Part shown: positions 6,192 to 23,813 of the stretch, in pieces | Position numbering within the stretch: the stretch's first letter is position 1 | Layout: each line of letters begins with the position of its first letter | Notes under the pieces: generated by a model | Databases searched by the model: none | What the model saw: the letters and a program-made list of their open reading frames with translations, nothing else | Told to the model about the DNA's origin: nothing | Virus record (IMG/VR): IMGVR_UViG_3300045988_038444 | Span: 1 to 43,689 of that record | DNA: 43,689 nt | Reading direction: 5' to 3' (one strand) | DNA from: a virus | Taxonomy: Duplodnaviria; Heunggongvirae; Uroviricota; Caudoviricetes | Position numbers and translations under genes: made by a program

Positions 6192-9164
6192 ATGGCTAAC
6201 TGTAACGATTATATCAGTGCTGATGATTTGAAAACAGGCAAACAAGCGATTTTACATATTGAACACGTTGCGAAAAGTCGTGATGCTAACGGTAATCATG
6301 CGTTGGATGTTACCGATACGATCCGTGATCAATCAGTTACCAACAAGACGCTTGATGGTTTAGAAAACCTGTACAATCAGGCTATATCTCAGGTTGGCTA
6401 TATCACAATGGATAGCTTCGAAGATGGCGCGACATTAACATTGCCTAACCAGGTGTTGCGATATAAGTCGACAGGAGAATATTACCGATGGGACGGTGAA
6501 TTTCCTAAAACCGTTTCTTCTGGTTCAACACCTGAAACTGCTGGTGGCGTTGGTCTTGGCGCGTGGGTTAGTGTTGGTGACGCTTCATTAAGAAGCCAGG
6601 TTTCTGACCCTGATGGCGCAACAAAATATCCAGATTTGCAGATCGCAAGATGGAGAGACACATTCGACCCGCGCGGGTGGAATGCAAAAGGTGATGGGGT
6701 CACCGATGACACCTCAGCGCTTAATGGCGTATTAAACGCCGCACCAGTTGGTCAGAAAATTAATGGCAATGGGAAGACATATAAGGTCACATCCCTGCCT
6801 GACATTAGTAGATTCGTCAATACTCGTTTTGTATATGAACGTATTCCTGGTCAGCCTCTTTTTTATGCTTCTGAAGATTTTATCCAGGGACAGTTATTTA
6901 AAATTACAGATACACCGTGGTACAACGCCTGGACGCAGGATAAAACGTTTGTATATGACAATGTCATCTATGCGCCTTTTATGGCTGGAGACCGCCATGG
7001 TGTAAATAACCTCCATGTTGCATGGGTTCGCTCAGGAGATGACGGGAAGACCTGGACAACGCCGGAATGGCTTACAGATTTACATGAAAACCATCCCACA
7101 GTTAACTATCACTGCATGAGTATGGGGGTTGTCAGAAATCGCCTTTTTGCTGTAATTGAGACGCGGACCGTGAGAGGAAATAAACTGCAGGTTGCAGAGT
7201 TGTGGGATCGCCCAATGAGTCGCAGCCTTCGCGTTTATGGTGGTATAACGAAAGCAGCAAATCAGCAAGTCGCTTATATTCGCATTACTGATCACGGATT
7301 ATTTGCTGGTGATTTTGTCAACTTCTCAAACTCTGGTGTTACAGGTGTTACCGGGAATATGACGGTGACTACTGTTATTGATAAAAATACTTTTACAGTT
7401 ACGACGCAAAATACCCAGGATGTGGATCAGAATAACGAGGGTGGATACTGGAGTTTTGGTACATCATTTCACTCGTCACCATGGAGAAAAACCAGTCTTG
7501 GAACTATTCCTTCTTTTGTTGACGGAAGCACTCCTGTTACTGAGATTCACAGTTTTGCGACGATTAGCGATAACAGTTTTGCTGTTGGCTACCATAATGG
7601 TGATATTGGTCCACGCGAGCTTGGGATACTCTATTTCTCTGATGCTTTCGGTTCTCCTGGTAGCTTTGTTCGCAGACGCATACCTGCAGAATATGAGGCG
7701 AATGCATCTGAGCCATGTGTAAAATATTATGATGGCATTCTGTATCTGACGACCAGGGGGACATTAAGTACTCAACCCGGTAGTTCATTGCACAGAAGCT
7801 CTGATTTAGGTATATCATGGAATTCTCTTCGCTTCCCAAATAATGTTCATCACTCAAACCTTCCTTTTGCCAAAGTTGGCGATGAGCTGATTATTTTTGG
7901 CAGTGAGCGCGCATTTGGTGAGTGGGAAGGAGGAGAACCTGATAACCGTTATGCAGGAAACTATCCAAGAACATTTATGACCAGAGTTAACGTCAATGAG
8001 TGGAGTCTGGATAATGTAGAGTGGGTTAATGTTACTGATCAGATTTATCAGGGCGGAATAGTTAACTCTGCGGTTGGTGTTGGTTCAGTTTGTATCAAAG
8101 ACAACTGGCTGTACTACATTTTCGGTGGGGAAGACTTTCTAAACCCATGGAGCATAGGGGATAACAACAAAAAATATCCTTATGTTCACGATGGTCACCC
8201 GGCTGATTTGTATTGTTTCAGGGTGAAAATTAAACAGGAAGAATTTGTTTCAAGGGATTTTGTCTACGGAGCCACTCCTAACAGAACGCTTCCTACTTTT
8301 ATGTCGACGTCAGGCGTGAGGACGGTTCCTGTACCCGTTGATTTCACAGATGATGTTGCCGTCCAGTCACTGACTGTCCATGCAGGTACATCAGGACAAG
8401 TTCGCGCGGAAGTCAAACTTGAGGGTAATTACGCCATTATTGCGAAGAAAGTACCGTCTGATAATGTTACCGCTCAGAGATTAATCGTTAGCGGCGGTGA
8501 AACAACGTCTTCAGCAGATGGTGCAATGATAACGTTGCATGGTTCCGGAAGCAGTACTCCACGTCGCGCGGTATATAACGCACTCGAACATCTTTTTGAG
8601 AACGGAGATGTTAAACCTCATCTTGATAATGTAAATGCTCTTGGTGGGCCTAGCAACCGTTTCACCACTGCATACCTCGGAAGCAACCCTATTGTTACTT
8701 CTAACGGAGAGAAGAAAACGGAGCCGGTAGTTTTTGATGATGCTTTCCTGGATGCCTGGGGTGACGTTCACTACATCATGTACAAGTGGTTAGATGCTAT
8801 TCAACTGAAAGGCAATGATGCTCGTATTCACTTCGGGGTTATTGCTCAGCAAATTCGTGATGTATTCATTGCACATGGTCTGATGGACGAAAACAGTACG
8901 GATTGTCGTTATGCCGTTCTGTGCTATGACAAGTATCCACGGATGACCGATATGGTATTTTCGCACAATGAAATCGTTGAACACACTGACGATGAGGGTA
9001 ATGTCACTACCACGGAAGAACCTGTATACACCGAGGTGGTTATTCACGAAGAGGGTGAGGAATGGGGTGTTCGGCCTGACGGAATTTTCTTTGCTGAAGC
9101 TGCTTATCAGCGAAGAAAACTGGAAAGAATCGAAGCCAGACTTTCTGCTCTTGAACAGAAGTAA
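6192..9164 (+). CDS. tailspike endosialidase (endo-N-acylneuraminidase) with C-terminal intramolecular chaperone domain
   Basis: ATG 6192 follows GGAGA. Asp-boxes SGDDGKTW (7032-7055) and SSDLGISW (7797-7820). The C-terminal ~150 aa (...ARIHFGVIAQQIRDVF...RRKLERIEARLSALEQK) resembles the peptidase S74 chaperone domain of K1F/K1E endosialidases. Confidence 0.85.
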   Translation: MANCNDYISADDLKTGKQAILHIEHVAKSRDANGNHALDVTDTIRDQSVTNKTLDGLENLYNQAISQVGYITMDSFEDGATLTLPNQVLRYKSTGEYYRWDGEFPKTVSSGSTPETAGGVGLGAWVSVGDASLRSQVSDPDGATKYPDLQIARWRDTFDPRGWNAKGDGVTDDTSALNGVLNAAPVGQKINGNGKTYKVTSLPDISRFVNTRFVYERIPGQPLFYASEDFIQGQLFKITDTPWYNAWTQDKTFVYDNVIYAPFMAGDRHGVNNLHVAWVRSGDDGKTWTTPEWLTDLHENHPTVNYHCMSMGVVRNRLFAVIETRTVRGNKLQVAELWDRPMSRSLRVYGGITKAANQQVAYIRITDHGLFAGDFVNFSNSGVTGVTGNMTVTTVIDKNTFTVTTQNTQDVDQNNEGGYWSFGTSFHSSPWRKTSLGTIPSFVDGSTPVTEIHSFATISDNSFAVGYHNGDIGPRELGILYFSDAFGSPGSFVRRRIPAEYEANASEPCVKYYDGILYLTTRGTLSTQPGSSLHRSSDLGISWNSLRFPNNVHHSNLPFAKVGDELIIFGSERAFGEWEGGEPDNRYAGNYPRTFMTRVNVNEWSLDNVEWVNVTDQIYQGGIVNSAVGVGSVCIKDNWLYYIFGGEDFLNPWSIGDNNKKYPYVHDGHPADLYCFRVKIKQEEFVSRDFVYGATPNRTLPTFMSTSGVRTVPVPVDFTDDVAVQSLTVHAGTSGQVRAEVKLEGNYAIIAKKVPSDNVTAQRLIVSGGETTSSADGAMITLHGSGSSTPRRAVYNALEHLFENGDVKPHLDNVNALGGPSNRFTTAYLGSNPIVTSNGEKKTEPVVFDDAFLDAWGDVHYIMYKWLDAIQLKGNDARIHFGVIAQQIRDVFIAHGLMDENSTDCRYAVLCYDKYPRMTDMVFSHNEIVEHTDDEGNVTTTEEPVYTEVVIHEEGEEWGVRPDGIFFAEAAYQRRKLERIEARLSALEQK

Positions 9165-22103: not shown

Positions 22104-22481
22104 TTATACCGCTCCAACAGGATGAATAAATGCCATATCATCCCCTAACAATCGTGGGTTTTGACGATCAAGAAGGCGATATTCTTTACCACGTTCATCA
22201 ACCACAACATCACCCCGATCAGGAACAAATCGTGGTTCAAAACTCTGACTATCCATAATTACCATCGTTGTGGTTATTCTGGTCATAGTAGTCGGATCCC
22301 ACTTTTCTAATGGGTAAATATAACCACGACACGTATGCGATTCAGTAACGGTTGTACCCGGTAATGTAGGATTAGACGGGTTGGGAACTGTTATCACACG
22401 TTTTACCGTCAAATCCTCACCTACTTCAGCAAGTGCACGAGTAACACCTTTCAGGACACTTTGACGTTTGTCTGCCATCAC
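22104..22481 (-). CDS. head closure / head-tail adaptor protein
   Basis: 125 aa. Follows the connector-like gene. Called on synteny. Confidence 0.45.
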   Translation of the reverse strand: MMADKRQSVLKGVTRALAEVGEDLTVKRVITVPNPSNPTLPGTTVTESHTCRGYIYPLEKWDPTTMTRITTTMVIMDSQSFEPRFVPDRGDVVVDERGKEYRLLDRQNPRLLGDDMAFIHPVGAV

Positions 22482-22888
22482 CGTTCACCCTCGTTAAGTG
22501 CACGACCACCGCTTTCAAGTGTTACAGGTGGGTTGTCGAACTGACCACGTTGAATAGCAGGTTGCATACCAGCGCCAGTTAATGTAGCTCCACCAACACC
22601 CATAAAACTACCTAACAAACCGCCACCTGAATCAGCGCCAGTATTAATACGTAAAATAAAATCTTTTTTAAGTTTATTCCAGGCGTCTGCTGACTGACTA
22701 CTGCTGAGTGAGATCGGACCTACTTTAATGTCAGTATCGTTGCTGGCAATAGACGCCATATAATCACAGAGAGCGACGCAAATACTGAGAGGATTTGTAT
22801 AACCGTTGTCAATGTACCACTGAATTTGTTCATCAGTAACATCAGGGACACTGATCAAATAACGAATACCTTCAACTGTAATAGCCAT
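22478..22888 (-). CDS. head-tail connector (gp6-like) protein
   Basis: The start is taken at MAITVEGIRY (ATG 22888, RBS AGGTGA). The track start at 23062 would translate through a terminator hairpin. Confidence 0.5.
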   Translation of the reverse strand: MAITVEGIRYLISVPDVTDEQIQWYIDNGYTNPLSICVALCDYMASIASNDTDIKVGPISLSSSQSADAWNKLKKDFILRINTGADSGGGLLGSFMGVGGATLTGAGMQPAIQRGQFDNPPVTLESGGRALNEGER

Positions 22889-22927
22889 GTGATCACCTGT
22901 GAGAAATGTTTTCGTTATATTAGCACG

Positions 22928-22953
22928 AAAAAAAGCCGTCTTAAACAGACGGC
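22928..22953 (-). terminator. strong intrinsic terminator ending the non-coding segment (minus strand)
   Basis: On the minus strand: GCCGTCT-GTTTA-AGACGGC followed by T7. Confidence 0.75.
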
Positions 22954-23459
22954 AAATGGCTCTGGGTGATAATGAGGGTTTTACATAACTGGTCATCCAC
23001 ACCTGACGTCCCAACATACCCCTATGCGTGACACGTGAATAACCAGTTATGTAAAACGACACGCAGTTCAGGATGTTTCACAACATGCTTTACCCACGAT
23101 TTGCGGCTTTCCCGCCAGCAAGATAAGGATCACCTCCTTATCAGCGAGTGTTTGGGTTGTGGCGGTTGGAATCGAACCAACTCCCATCGGTGCGATTCCA
23201 ACCGCAGTACGCGCAGCGGTCCGCTACATGACTAGTATTTTCACGGTCGCCTATCTGCTAGCTCGCCATTGAGCTTCACCACAACGGAAAGAGCACTGGA
23301 ACTTGGGCTGAGTATTACCGCATGTCTTTCGACTTCGAACCAAGGCTGACATTACCCAATGCTCTTACCTGTTATGTGCCGGTTACGTTTATCCGGCGTC
23401 TTTCGACCGATTAAGTGATAGTGTCTGCTATGCAGTTCTGTCACTGACTTAACAATAGG
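22954..23459 (-). ncRNA. candidate large structured non-coding RNA (function unknown)
   Basis: About 500 nt with no credible ORF on either strand. Contains many perfect hairpins, GAAA loops and a tRNA-like module, and is bounded by a gene stop and a terminator. See findings. Confidence 0.35.
23158..23283 (-). other. tRNA-like module (non-canonical, 126 nt)
   Basis: On the minus strand: acceptor TGTGGTG/CGCCACA (7 bp, one G-U), D-arm GCTC-AATGGC-GAGC, T-arm GTTGG-TTCGATT-CCAAC. There are 78 nt and no 5-bp/7-nt anticodon arm between the D-arm and the T-arm. Confidence 0.3.
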
Positions 23460-23813
23460 TCAAGAATAGTTATATGTCAAGCCTTGTGATTCACACCATT
23501 TAGCAGCGGCACTTTTACTACTAAACGATTCTGAATTCATCGGCATACCCATAACATAAACATTATAGGTTTTTGGCGCATCACGTCGGATTTCAGCCGC
23601 AGTGGTTGATGCCGATTCTTCGGTTGCTACAGTCACTGGTTCTTCAACGGTCGCAGTAGCTGGTTCAATGTGGCGCATACGCACAAGGGCGTTTAAAACA
23701 GCCGGGGTAGCTTTTGATGTTGATACTTTATCGCCAGCGGACATCTGTTTACCGTTCCACAGCATCGGACGGGTGAAAACATATTTCAGTGACGGATCAT
23801 ATGAATTACGCAT
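23460..23813 (-). CDS. hypothetical protein (117 aa)
   Basis: The start is taken at MRNSYDP (ATG 23813, RBS GAGG). The track start at 23867 runs through the capsid-gene terminator. Confidence 0.55.
   Translation of the reverse strand: MRNSYDPSLKYVFTRPMLWNGKQMSAGDKVSTSKATPAVLNALVRMRHIEPATATVEEPVTVATEESASTTAAEIRRDAPKTYNVYVMGMPMNSESFSSKSAAAKWCESQGLTYNYS

Follow-up and report, generated by a model that had tools for sequence, protein, structure and literature searches.

Genomic setting and structure of the module

The IMG/VR phage genome IMGVR_UViG_3300045988_038444, analysed over its full 43,689 nt and hereafter called the window, belongs to a Sashavirus-like (9NA-like) siphophage of Salmonella or E. 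coli. Between its head and tail genes lies a gap of ~570 nt, bounded by a gene ending at 23460 and a homologue of Sasha gp38, and this gap holds a tRNA-like RNA module, which we call T-type, co-oriented with the head and tail genes and preceded by a long hairpin, P1. No related record annotates the gap as coding. Its parts are as follows.

23154-23285, minus strand: complete T-type tRNA-like module, a five-helix cloverleaf, defined by the score of covariance model R1, the RNAalifold consensus and pair counts (all below)
23277-23285, minus strand: acceptor-like stem, 5' strand GUUGUGGUG, pairing with 23156-23164; its inner 7 nt are the acceptor of an earlier sequence-only reading
23156-23164, minus strand: acceptor-like stem, 3' strand CGCCACAAC, followed by CC with no encoded CCA (sequence reading)
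23261-23274, minus strand: D arm GCUC-AAUGGC-GAGC with GG in the loop, preceded by A8 A9 replacing U8; nearly invariant among 74 variants
23204-23258, minus strand: extra arm of 55 nt at the junction of D stem and anticodon-like hairpin; both stems covary
23231-23236, minus strand: self-complementary hexamer ACUAGU at the centre of the extra-arm loop, flanked by GAA and UGUA
23186-23202, minus strand: anticodon-like hairpin GUUGG-AAUCGCA-CCGAU, 5 bp (two of them G-U) and a 7-nt loop
23165-23181, minus strand: T arm GUUGG-UUCGAUU-CCAAC; compensatory changes in 3/5 pairs

Read on the minus strand, 23154-23285 runs GUUGUGGUG, AA, the D arm, UA, the 55-nt arm, G, the anticodon-like hairpin, GGGA, the T arm, CGCCACAAC and CC. 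The sequence-only reading had described a 126-nt module (23158-23283) with acceptor, D and T arms, a D-to-T-arm interval of 78 nt and no 5-bp/7-nt arm. By direct reading both lengths are right, and the minus strand carries the 7-bp acceptor TGTGGTG (23283-23277)/CGCCACA (23164-23158) with one G-U pair, the D arm GCTC-AATGGC-GAGC (23274-23261) and the T arm GTTGG-TTCGATT-CCAAC (23181-23165). The claim of a missing arm was wrong, since GTTGG-AATCGCA-CCGAT at 23202-23186 is a 5-bp stem with a 7-nt loop, overlooked owing to the two G-U pairs of the window copy; in relatives the same hairpin is ATCGG-CAGCGCA-CCGAT (DNA letters). The variable loop GGGA between this hairpin and the T arm is 4 nt long, as in class-I tRNA geometry.

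The module therefore has every part of a cloverleaf at the right spacing: the 7-bp acceptor, the D arm (G18 G19 present), the 5-bp/7-nt arm and the T arm with a T-psi-C loop. It departs from the cloverleaf in its fifth helix and in an acceptor-like helix that covaries over 9 bp, GUUGUGGUG/CGCCACAAC in the window (23285-23277 with 23164-23156) and GGUGAGGUG/CACCUCACC or UGAGUGGUG/CACCACUCA in relatives. The decoding nucleotides U8, U33 and purine 37 are missing throughout the family, which has A8, A33, C37 and a 6-nt D loop with no A20. In the anticodon-like loop (consensus NANCGCA, with positions 33 and 37 non-canonical) C35 and G36 are invariant and position 34 is either G or U. The genomic 3' end is A-CCC in the window, A-CAC in Skatevirus Seszw, and A-CCA only in some of the copies found in N leaders.

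A conserved family with covarying helices

Pattern scans of IMG/VR and a genome collection yielded 165 phage and prophage loci with 74 distinct sequences. RNAalifold and a fold-energy comparison used 40 distinct variants, a set later enlarged to 74, and the covariance model R1 was built from 71 homologues, with the window copy and its two nearest relatives excluded. R1 matched the window copy at 137 bits (E = 9.7e-28), its sole match in the window, versus 22-23 bits for genuine tRNAs (E. coli argU 22.6). The window copy qualifies as T-type by its hexamer ACUAGU, its loop AAUCGCA and the ability to form all five helices.

RNAalifold returned a 9-bp acceptor-like stem, D arm, two-part extra arm, 5-bp/7-nt hairpin and T arm, with compensatory changes in 17/35 pairs. 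When the structure named above was scored, 96.7% of cells were paired, against 26-51% with partners slid by 1-3 columns, and 22/39 pairs changed on both sides, values reached by 0/500 shuffles. Both-side changes affected 4/9 pairs of the acceptor-like stem and 8/9 pairs of the main stem of the extra arm, and the T arm varied in compensatory fashion as GCCGG/CCGGC, GCAGG/CCUGU and GCUGG/CCAGC. The D stem never varies and gives no covariation signal, either way. G-U combinations numbered 78 and A-C combinations only 4, so the selected molecule is the minus-strand RNA. Single-base indels among the RNA homologues argue against coding.

Mean column identity is 85-91% across Sashavirus, Skatevirus, lambdoid, Erwinia and Klebsiella phages and prophages. 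BLAST recovered the tRNA-like part in Skatevirus Seszw, Skate and CECAV048, in lambdoid HK75, a Lambdavirus and a Wanchaivirus, and in Erwinia phage Midgardsormr38 and Pantoea phages. Prophages carry the module into 163 of 5,426 complete E. coli genomes (3%), always unannotated, and all 180 E. coli prophage copies in RefSeq are likewise unannotated. From the genome collection the scan gained nothing beyond prophages of Klebsiella and Superficieibacter, a single coding match due to chance and a single contig that is probably a contaminant. A contig of a Cellvibrionaceae metagenome-assembled genome (JAUVQU010000080.1, locus L195) carries a late leader and module like the commonest HK75-like form of E. 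coli, which is probably contamination or mis-binning. Some public records label the region as a 58-nt 'tRNA-Ser', 'hypothetical protein ORF57' or 'polyubiquitin-A' (L003 2675-2732; L193 2556-2804; vB_EcoP-683R2; vB_EcoP-611R6).

The sequence-only reading had offered three identities, of which a tRNA mimic fits best. A disrupted tRNA gene is rejected as the 55-56-nt interruption is itself conserved and covarying, and is present in 165/165 copies. A vestigial att-type fragment is rejected too, given the presence of both acceptor strands, the occurrence in lytic as well as temperate phages at non-att positions, and selection on the RNA of one strand. More broadly, a present-day lack of function, in a decaying tRNA pseudogene or in the remnant of a tRNA-associated attachment site, might explain why tRNA finders and Rfam reject the module and why the window copy bears a private cluster of destabilising mutations (both below). 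Set against compensatory covariation throughout the family, the column identity across unrelated phage groups, and both acceptor strands retained in lytic phages and away from att positions, such decay is barely credible.

Searches with known RNA models

ARAGORN in tRNA and tmRNA modes called 0 genes in the whole window, and Rfam 15 at gathering thresholds had no match in it. A relaxed Rfam scan of 22700-23800 gave chance-level matches only (tRNA-Sec, mir-2076, suhB, STnc560), the best being tRNA-Sec at 17.8 bits (E = 1.7) and spanning only 23157-23229. We rejected tRNA-Sec (RF01852) on that score, its gathering threshold being 47 bits and its definition also calling for 8/5 or 9/4 acceptor/T geometry. 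Also rejected were a tmRNA, for which neither the ARAGORN tmRNA search nor Rfam gave a match; a canonical tRNA, since ARAGORN and RF00005 both refuse the intact module; and a Y RNA or YrlA, the topology being that of a standard tRNA and the local Rfam scan giving no match to E 10 (window proteins unscreened for Ro60). A group I intron does not fit an insertion of 55-56 nt outside the anticodon loop with no Rfam intron match, and a bulge-helix-bulge intron does not fit a junction that by inspection is a 3-by-7 internal loop rather than two 3-nt bulges 4 bp apart.

The sequence-only reading had proposed tRNA models as the check on the module, together with pairings in homologous phages. Indeed no tRNA model rises above noise on the intact module, and the conserved pairings in homologous phages reverse the verdict that this alone would give. 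The tRNA finders fail because the conserved 55-56-nt arm interrupts the junction of D stem and anticodon-like hairpin. With the arm deleted in silico, ARAGORN calls a tRNA-Arg (GCG or UCG) in relatives at default thresholds, and in the window copy only at a relaxed threshold (-ps90). No arm-less version was found in IMG/VR with the pattern used, and no description of the tRNA-like RNA was found in Rfam 15 or in the literature searched by topic and by the sequence word AGGTAAGAGCA, mostly outside subscription journals.

These ARAGORN calls raise the question of a functional tRNA-Arg that decodes CGN codons for the phage once the 55-nt insertion is removed, or in spite of it. The invariant C35/G36 with G or U at position 34 would suit such a role, and lambdoid phages do have real tRNA-Arg genes in their late leader (argN and argO of 933W). 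We consider it extremely unlikely. A33 and C37 stand in place of the near-universal U33 and purine 37, A8 replaces U8, and the 6-nt D loop without A20 is equally foreign to it; the insertion lies outside the anticodon loop, is far below group I intron size, and has neither an Rfam match nor a bulge-helix-bulge; and an intron would have no use for a conserved palindromic loop. We know of no bacterial enzyme for such splicing, which also counts against a decoding tRNA-Arg.

The extra arm and its palindromic loop

The extra arm begins with a 4-bp stem GCAG/CUGC (GGG/CCC in other subtypes); beyond the internal loop AUA/GCGCGUA comes a second, longer stem, which is capped by a loop of 20 nt. The second stem reaches up to 9 bp, and its sequence is wholly different between subtypes while pairing is kept. 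At the same position in the loop the subtypes have ACUAGU, UCUAGA, UCGCGA, GCUAGC, ACCGGU, UCCGGA or UCUGGA, and 7/7 of these hexamers are self-complementary, UCUGGA only through G-U. Hairpin loops of other RNA types that follow P1 contain no excess of palindromic hexamers (2 seen vs 3.8 expected), so the feature is specific to the T-type RNA. Because a 6-nt palindrome is unable to pair within one loop, an intermolecular kissing contact is the simplest reading, and the comparative pattern suggests a kissing-loop homodimer through the arm loop. By eye, the flanks of the hexamer (GAA; A/UGUA) resemble loop-E/sarcin-ricin motifs. A pseudoknot that pairs GCGC of the anticodon-like loop with the GCGCGUA joiner was also tried and rejected, there being no consistent covariation among variants.

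Hexamers of this kind are 6-bp DNA palindromes as well. Together with the CACAAC/GTTGTG/CACAAC repeats they could act on DNA, as recombination or protein-binding sites marking exchangeable cassettes, with the RNA fold incidental. Mosaic cassette boundaries, with the same flanks around different interiors, would accord with this, as would the private mutation of the window copy, which resembles a DNA template switch at a quasi-palindrome. The excess of G-U over A-C and the G-U-only hexamer UCUGGA point instead to pairing in RNA from a single strand; covariation extends to five separate helices; and a dimeric DNA-binding protein would not tolerate seven different hexamers. All of this makes a DNA-level element very unlikely.

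Taken together, the alignments support a structured RNA that is conserved and strand-specific; its body is tRNA-Arg-like, it has an extra arm, and selection has kept one of its loops self-complementary. Judged from these sequences, the body appears to keep the acceptor/T-arm stack, the D-loop/T-loop elbow and the anticodon-like hairpin, and with A8, A33, C37 and the 6-nt D loop decoding is unlikely.

Lambda N leader and other leader positions

About 37 of the 165 family copies are flanked by a nut site (boxA + boxB) on one side and an N-like gene on the other, with a small hairpin CCAAAG...CUUUGG before the module and A-CCAAAG after it. One prophage (L254, 6800-6985) has lambda's own oL/pL, nutL and N, and its leader is the same as that of lambda except for the hairpin interior: the module replaces the 107-nt interior of CUUUGG-GGUGUGUG ... 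CACACACC-A-CCAAAG (lambda, L273, 35386-35515), and the flanks CAAAGCAGAAGGCUUUGG-GGUGUG ... CACACC-A-CCAAAGCUAACUGACAGGAGAAU are the same as lambda's. In predicted folds both leaders have an extended basal helix of ~16 bp with one bulged A, and the five-arm fold is the minimum-energy structure of the L254 interior.

No other large structure lies between nutL and the N ribosome-binding site, and the lambda hairpin is therefore taken here as the N-leader RNase III site, an identification that we presume, along with the details of cleavage. RNase III processing activates lambda N synthesis (Kameyama et al. 1991, as cited in PMC9032294). By analogy, the family would occupy slots that, at least in lambda, are excision sites. 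The window copy itself was rejected as an N-leader hairpin, since it follows P1 between head and tail genes and does not lie between nutL and N. In HK75 the module is in the late leader after tR'.

Such positions are what one would expect of a cis-acting RNA-processing ('punctuation') element, whose tRNA shape and basal or P1 helix attract RNase P or RNase III and whose freed RNA is functionless; cleavage would part the leader (nut RNA, late leader or upstream message) from the downstream message, or set the stability or translation of the latter. The N-leader copies sit exactly in the place of lambda's RNase III hairpin, whose role in activating N is the established precedent in the source cited above, the HK75 copy lies in a late leader, and the window copy has the orientation of the head and tail genes around it. 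For cleavage, however, a basal helix or an acceptor with T arm would suffice, and yet the arm, palindromic loop and anticodon-like loop are conserved and covary; interiors of the other slots are hypervariable, so that conservation of the T-type interior needs its own explanation. The Skatevirus copies, moreover, are antisense to the neighbouring structural genes, with a same-strand tRNA after the module in Seszw; CECAV048 has a promoter-like TTGACA-17-TAGATT before its copy; and in L203 a terminator directly follows the module, as in a stand-alone RNA gene. These features, and the promoter-like site and terminator-like hairpin of the window (below), indicate an independent-gene arrangement in some phages. 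We regard a purely cis-acting role as possible, on the unlikely side.

A private alternative helix in the window copy

The sequence-only reading had also reported a perfect 13-bp helix and, with it, two mutually exclusive folds. Its two strands are:

23193-23205, minus strand: 5' arm of the 13-bp inverted repeat, pairing with 23162-23174 and overlapping the anticodon-like hairpin
23162-23174, minus strand: 3' arm of the 13-bp inverted repeat, overlapping the T loop, T stem and start of the acceptor strand

The repeat is perfect as stated, GCGGTTGGAATCG (23205-23193) with CGATTCCAACCGC (23174-23162), and the two folds are real for the window sequence; as a feature of the family they do not exist. 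L035 is the nearest relative, with 98.2% identity across 8.4 kb. Both L035 and L036 have GCGATCGGCATCG where the window has GCGGTTGGAATCG, a difference of 3 clustered substitutions (over a wider stretch, GCGAUCGGCAUCG in L035/L036 and GCGGUUGGAAUCG in the window), and 3/3 substitutions turn mismatches of an imperfect repeat with the T arm into matches. They apparently arose from one templated (quasi-palindrome) mutation event, and folding of the copy may suffer from them. The helix is thus private to this genome and not a conserved riboswitch-like design.

In the window copy the alternative fold is better than the family fold by 19.1 kcal/mol, and the minimum-free-energy fold is without a T arm; the corresponding gap in other variants is 0-7 kcal/mol in 38/39 and 11 in one. 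Two of the substitutions fall within the stem of the anticodon-like hairpin and leave it pairable via G-U, so the window copy may still work if folded co-transcriptionally.

The noncoding unit around the module

Other features of the minus-strand unit, in the direction of the proposed transcription, are:

23452-23480, minus strand: sigma-70 promoter-like site TTGACA-17-TATTGT (consensus scan only)
23379-23396, minus strand: small hairpin CCGG-AUAAACGUAA-CCGG before P1 (sequence reading; similar ones stand before P1 in other loci)
23280-23378, minus strand: P1, a long hairpin CACAUAAC-AGGUAAGAGCAUUG ... CAGUGCUCUUUCC-GUUGUG with a variable tip, whose last 6 nt overlap the acceptor-like stem
23010-23025, minus strand: downstream motif AUAGGGGUAUGUUGGG, a possible third noncoding module, exact in Sasha, L035, L036 and St11Ph5
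22928-22953, minus strand: intrinsic terminator-like hairpin with T run, which would end the noncoding unit (consensus scan; an annotated terminator in Sasha)

About one promoter-like and one terminator-like site is expected by chance in the region. The AUAGGGGUAUGUUGGG motif lies between module and terminator in the window, and variants of it occur downstream of the Seszw and CECAV048 copies. Sasha, Sergei and Solent have the same flanks with a different, much shorter insert in the slot. Mechanically predicted open reading frames of 66 aa (23035-23235, plus strand) and 194 aa (22478-23062, minus strand) overlap the noncoding unit; going by the Sasha annotation, the real downstream gene begins past the terminator.

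A possible non-decoding tRNA-Arg mimic

The picture we tentatively favour, at a little short of even confidence, is that of a gene for a non-decoding, tRNA-Arg-derived RNA that is excised, stable and dimerising and acts in trans as a mimic. The minus strand would be transcribed as a noncoding unit of ~520 nt, from the promoter-like site near 23480 to the terminator near 22930; covariation supports the fold and the transcribed strand of this unit, and its promoter and terminator rest on consensus scans. Host RNases would then excise the module: RNase III, by the precedent of the lambda N leader, would cut the long basal helix or P1, and RNase P might cut at the acceptor as well or instead. A stable tRNA-shaped RNA would build up and pair with a second copy through the palindromic loop, as covariation suggests. 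In trans, this tRNA(-Arg) mimic might, speculatively, bind or titrate a host factor that recognises tRNA.

Several points weigh against this picture. Everything in it beyond a conserved structured RNA is inference from sequence. The promoter-like match is no better than chance for the region. Copies of the P1 type have no encoded 3' CCA and a helix of 9 rather than 7 bp, which makes processing by RNase P or aminoacylation uncertain. In lambdoid phages the module is always found in mRNA leaders and in sense orientation, a pattern that a role purely in cis would explain too, and an informal comparison of neighbouring genes showed no conserved partner gene. Finally, the window copy may itself be non-functional, as a simple energy model favours its alternative fold by 19 kcal/mol.

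Phage tRNAs are known to counter tRNA-targeting defence systems, and a conserved tRNA-Arg look-alike is therefore an obvious candidate for such a role. If the picture of a trans-acting mimic holds, phages of E. coli, Salmonella and Klebsiella commonly carry a structured RNA that annotation has so far missed, and it would appear where phage transcription begins earliest (the pL leader) or is strongest (the late leader). It would offer a model for how phages reuse the tRNA fold in non-decoding jobs, for whether phage small RNAs use RNA-RNA dimerisation, and for the differing interiors of the N-leader RNase III hairpin among otherwise identical lambda-type phages. At present tRNA finders reject the RNA and protein callers put spurious open reading frames on its gene; a covariance model such as R1 would clear the false 'hypothetical protein', 'tRNA-Ser' and 'polyubiquitin' annotations. 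The interest is greater for the family than for the window copy, a mutated member.

Likeness to known systems

We group the T-type RNA with the tRNA-derived noncoding RNAs of phages; members of the family adjoin true tRNAs in some phages. It is like tRNA-Arg in its acceptor/T stack, GG in the D loop, UUCGAUU T loop, hairpin with C35 G36 and 4-nt variable loop, and unlike it in the 55-56-nt arm at 26/27, A8, A33, C37, the 6-nt D loop, the 9-bp helix and the lack of an encoded CCA. The nearest systems by concept are the YrlA-type Y RNAs, the tRNA-like domain of tmRNA, the stable RNAs of T4 and an engineered tRNA scaffold; the nearest by location is the lambda N-leader hairpin. The latter occupies the same slot in some prophages, but lambda's 107-nt interior is unrelated and not tRNA-like, and the window module differs further in belonging to a lytic-type phage and lying after P1; cleavage of T-type copies would follow by analogy.

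T4 'species 1 and 2' (rnaC, rnaD) are small stable RNAs in a tRNA cluster, matured by tRNA machinery. Compared by description only, they have no known extra arm or palindromic loop. The dimerisation initiation site of human immunodeficiency virus 1 has a 6-nt self-complementary loop with purine flanks that varies between lineages yet stays palindromic. Its biology is unrelated, and the T-type loop, of 20 nt, is probably pre-organised by non-canonical pairs before any putative dimer contact.

YrlA RNAs are noncoding and mimic the D arm, T arm and acceptor stem of tRNA, and one member is cut by RNase P and then receives CCA (Chen et al. 2014, PMC4201824). They are circularly permuted, with a closed stem-loop as 'acceptor' and ends that form the Ro60-binding helix, and their gene lies beside rsr (PMC4201824). 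The T-type RNA, by contrast, has an open acceptor and standard tRNA order, and the Rfam scans brought up no Y RNA family. In the engineered tRNA scaffold (Ponchon and Dardel; used in PMC3753655) a foreign RNA arm is attached to a tRNA body at its anticodon side, and the body recruits tRNA processing and protects the RNA. That scaffold is man-made, whereas the T-type graft stands beside a retained anticodon-like hairpin, and its stabilisation of the RNA is hypothetical.

P1 and exchangeable cargo RNAs

In the predicted fold of the window the P1 stem is CACAAC-AGGUAAGAGCAUUG ... CAGUGCUCUUUCC-GUUGUG. The exact motif occurs in >120 IMG/VR loci, and P1 stands directly before a T-type module in the window and ~92 other loci. 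Across >170 IMG/VR loci it precedes many unrelated cargo RNAs, with a hypervariable tip. Its stem can differ on both strands and remain complementary, as in AAUGGCA/UGCCAUU (L055) and GAGAGUA/UACUCUC (L197), and since it covaries to other sequences we rejected its 3' strand UGCUCUUU as a boxA. Cargo inserts after P1 are closed by a common GUGGUG/CACCAC helix.

At the exact junction after P1, locus L099 has a genuine tRNA-Arg (UCU; ~7104-7184), so real tRNAs, too, can have P1 as their leader. Other tRNA-like bodies with insertions follow P1 in L181, L127 and L185. The commonest other cargo, 'type A' (L111, L141, L186, L163 and ~30 others), has hairpins at the D-arm and T-arm positions whose loops GGCUGA/AUCAGC are complementary and covary (GUCGA/UCGAC in L141, ACUGA/UCAGU in L186); from these sequences the loop pairing looks like a kissing-loop substitute for the tRNA elbow. 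The wider P1 family is found in HK620, N4-like, Klebsiella, Cronobacter and Stx phages. Near upl of phage P1 there is a short match, only to the region preceding the P1 hairpin. In 933W the genes ileZ, argN and argO are ordinary and have no P1 hairpin there, and the E. coli K-12 prophages DLP12 and Qin have neither a P1 hairpin nor a T-type copy.

T-type is one cargo type of a modular enterobacterial phage RNA family in which a conserved basal helix or P1 holds exchangeable tRNA-shaped inserts. A bolder version of the mimic, which we hold to be improbable, sees the whole family as exchangeable RNA cassettes: the basal helix or P1 would serve as a pri-miRNA-like excision platform for RNase III and/or RNase P, freeing tRNA-shaped RNAs with active, variable domains on the anticodon side, and the T-type RNA would be a kissing-loop-homodimer mimic of tRNA-Arg that neutralises a tRNA-directed host factor, e.g. 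an anticodon nuclease or a tRNA-sensing defence. If true, it would explain the swappable interior of the lambda N-leader hairpin.

Within the P1 tip of L175 (7921-7967, minus strand) the hammerhead type I catalytic core is present in full (CUGACGAG ... CGAAAC ... GUC); its score of 24.7 bits falls short of the gathering score (34), and the local E-value is 9e-4. In the K-12 Qin prophage (L199, ~19241, plus strand), between ydfC and dicF and upstream of the latter, there is a weak match with 3 mismatches to the P1 3' strand GTGCGCTTCCGGTTGTGG, probably due to chance. Escherichia phage St11Ph5 (L005, 2230-3640) has a 1.4-kb noncoding stretch after a tRNA-Ala, with a P1 hairpin inside and several GGTTCGANTCC T-loop-like motifs uncalled by ARAGORN, which by these motifs may be an array of further tRNA-like RNAs.

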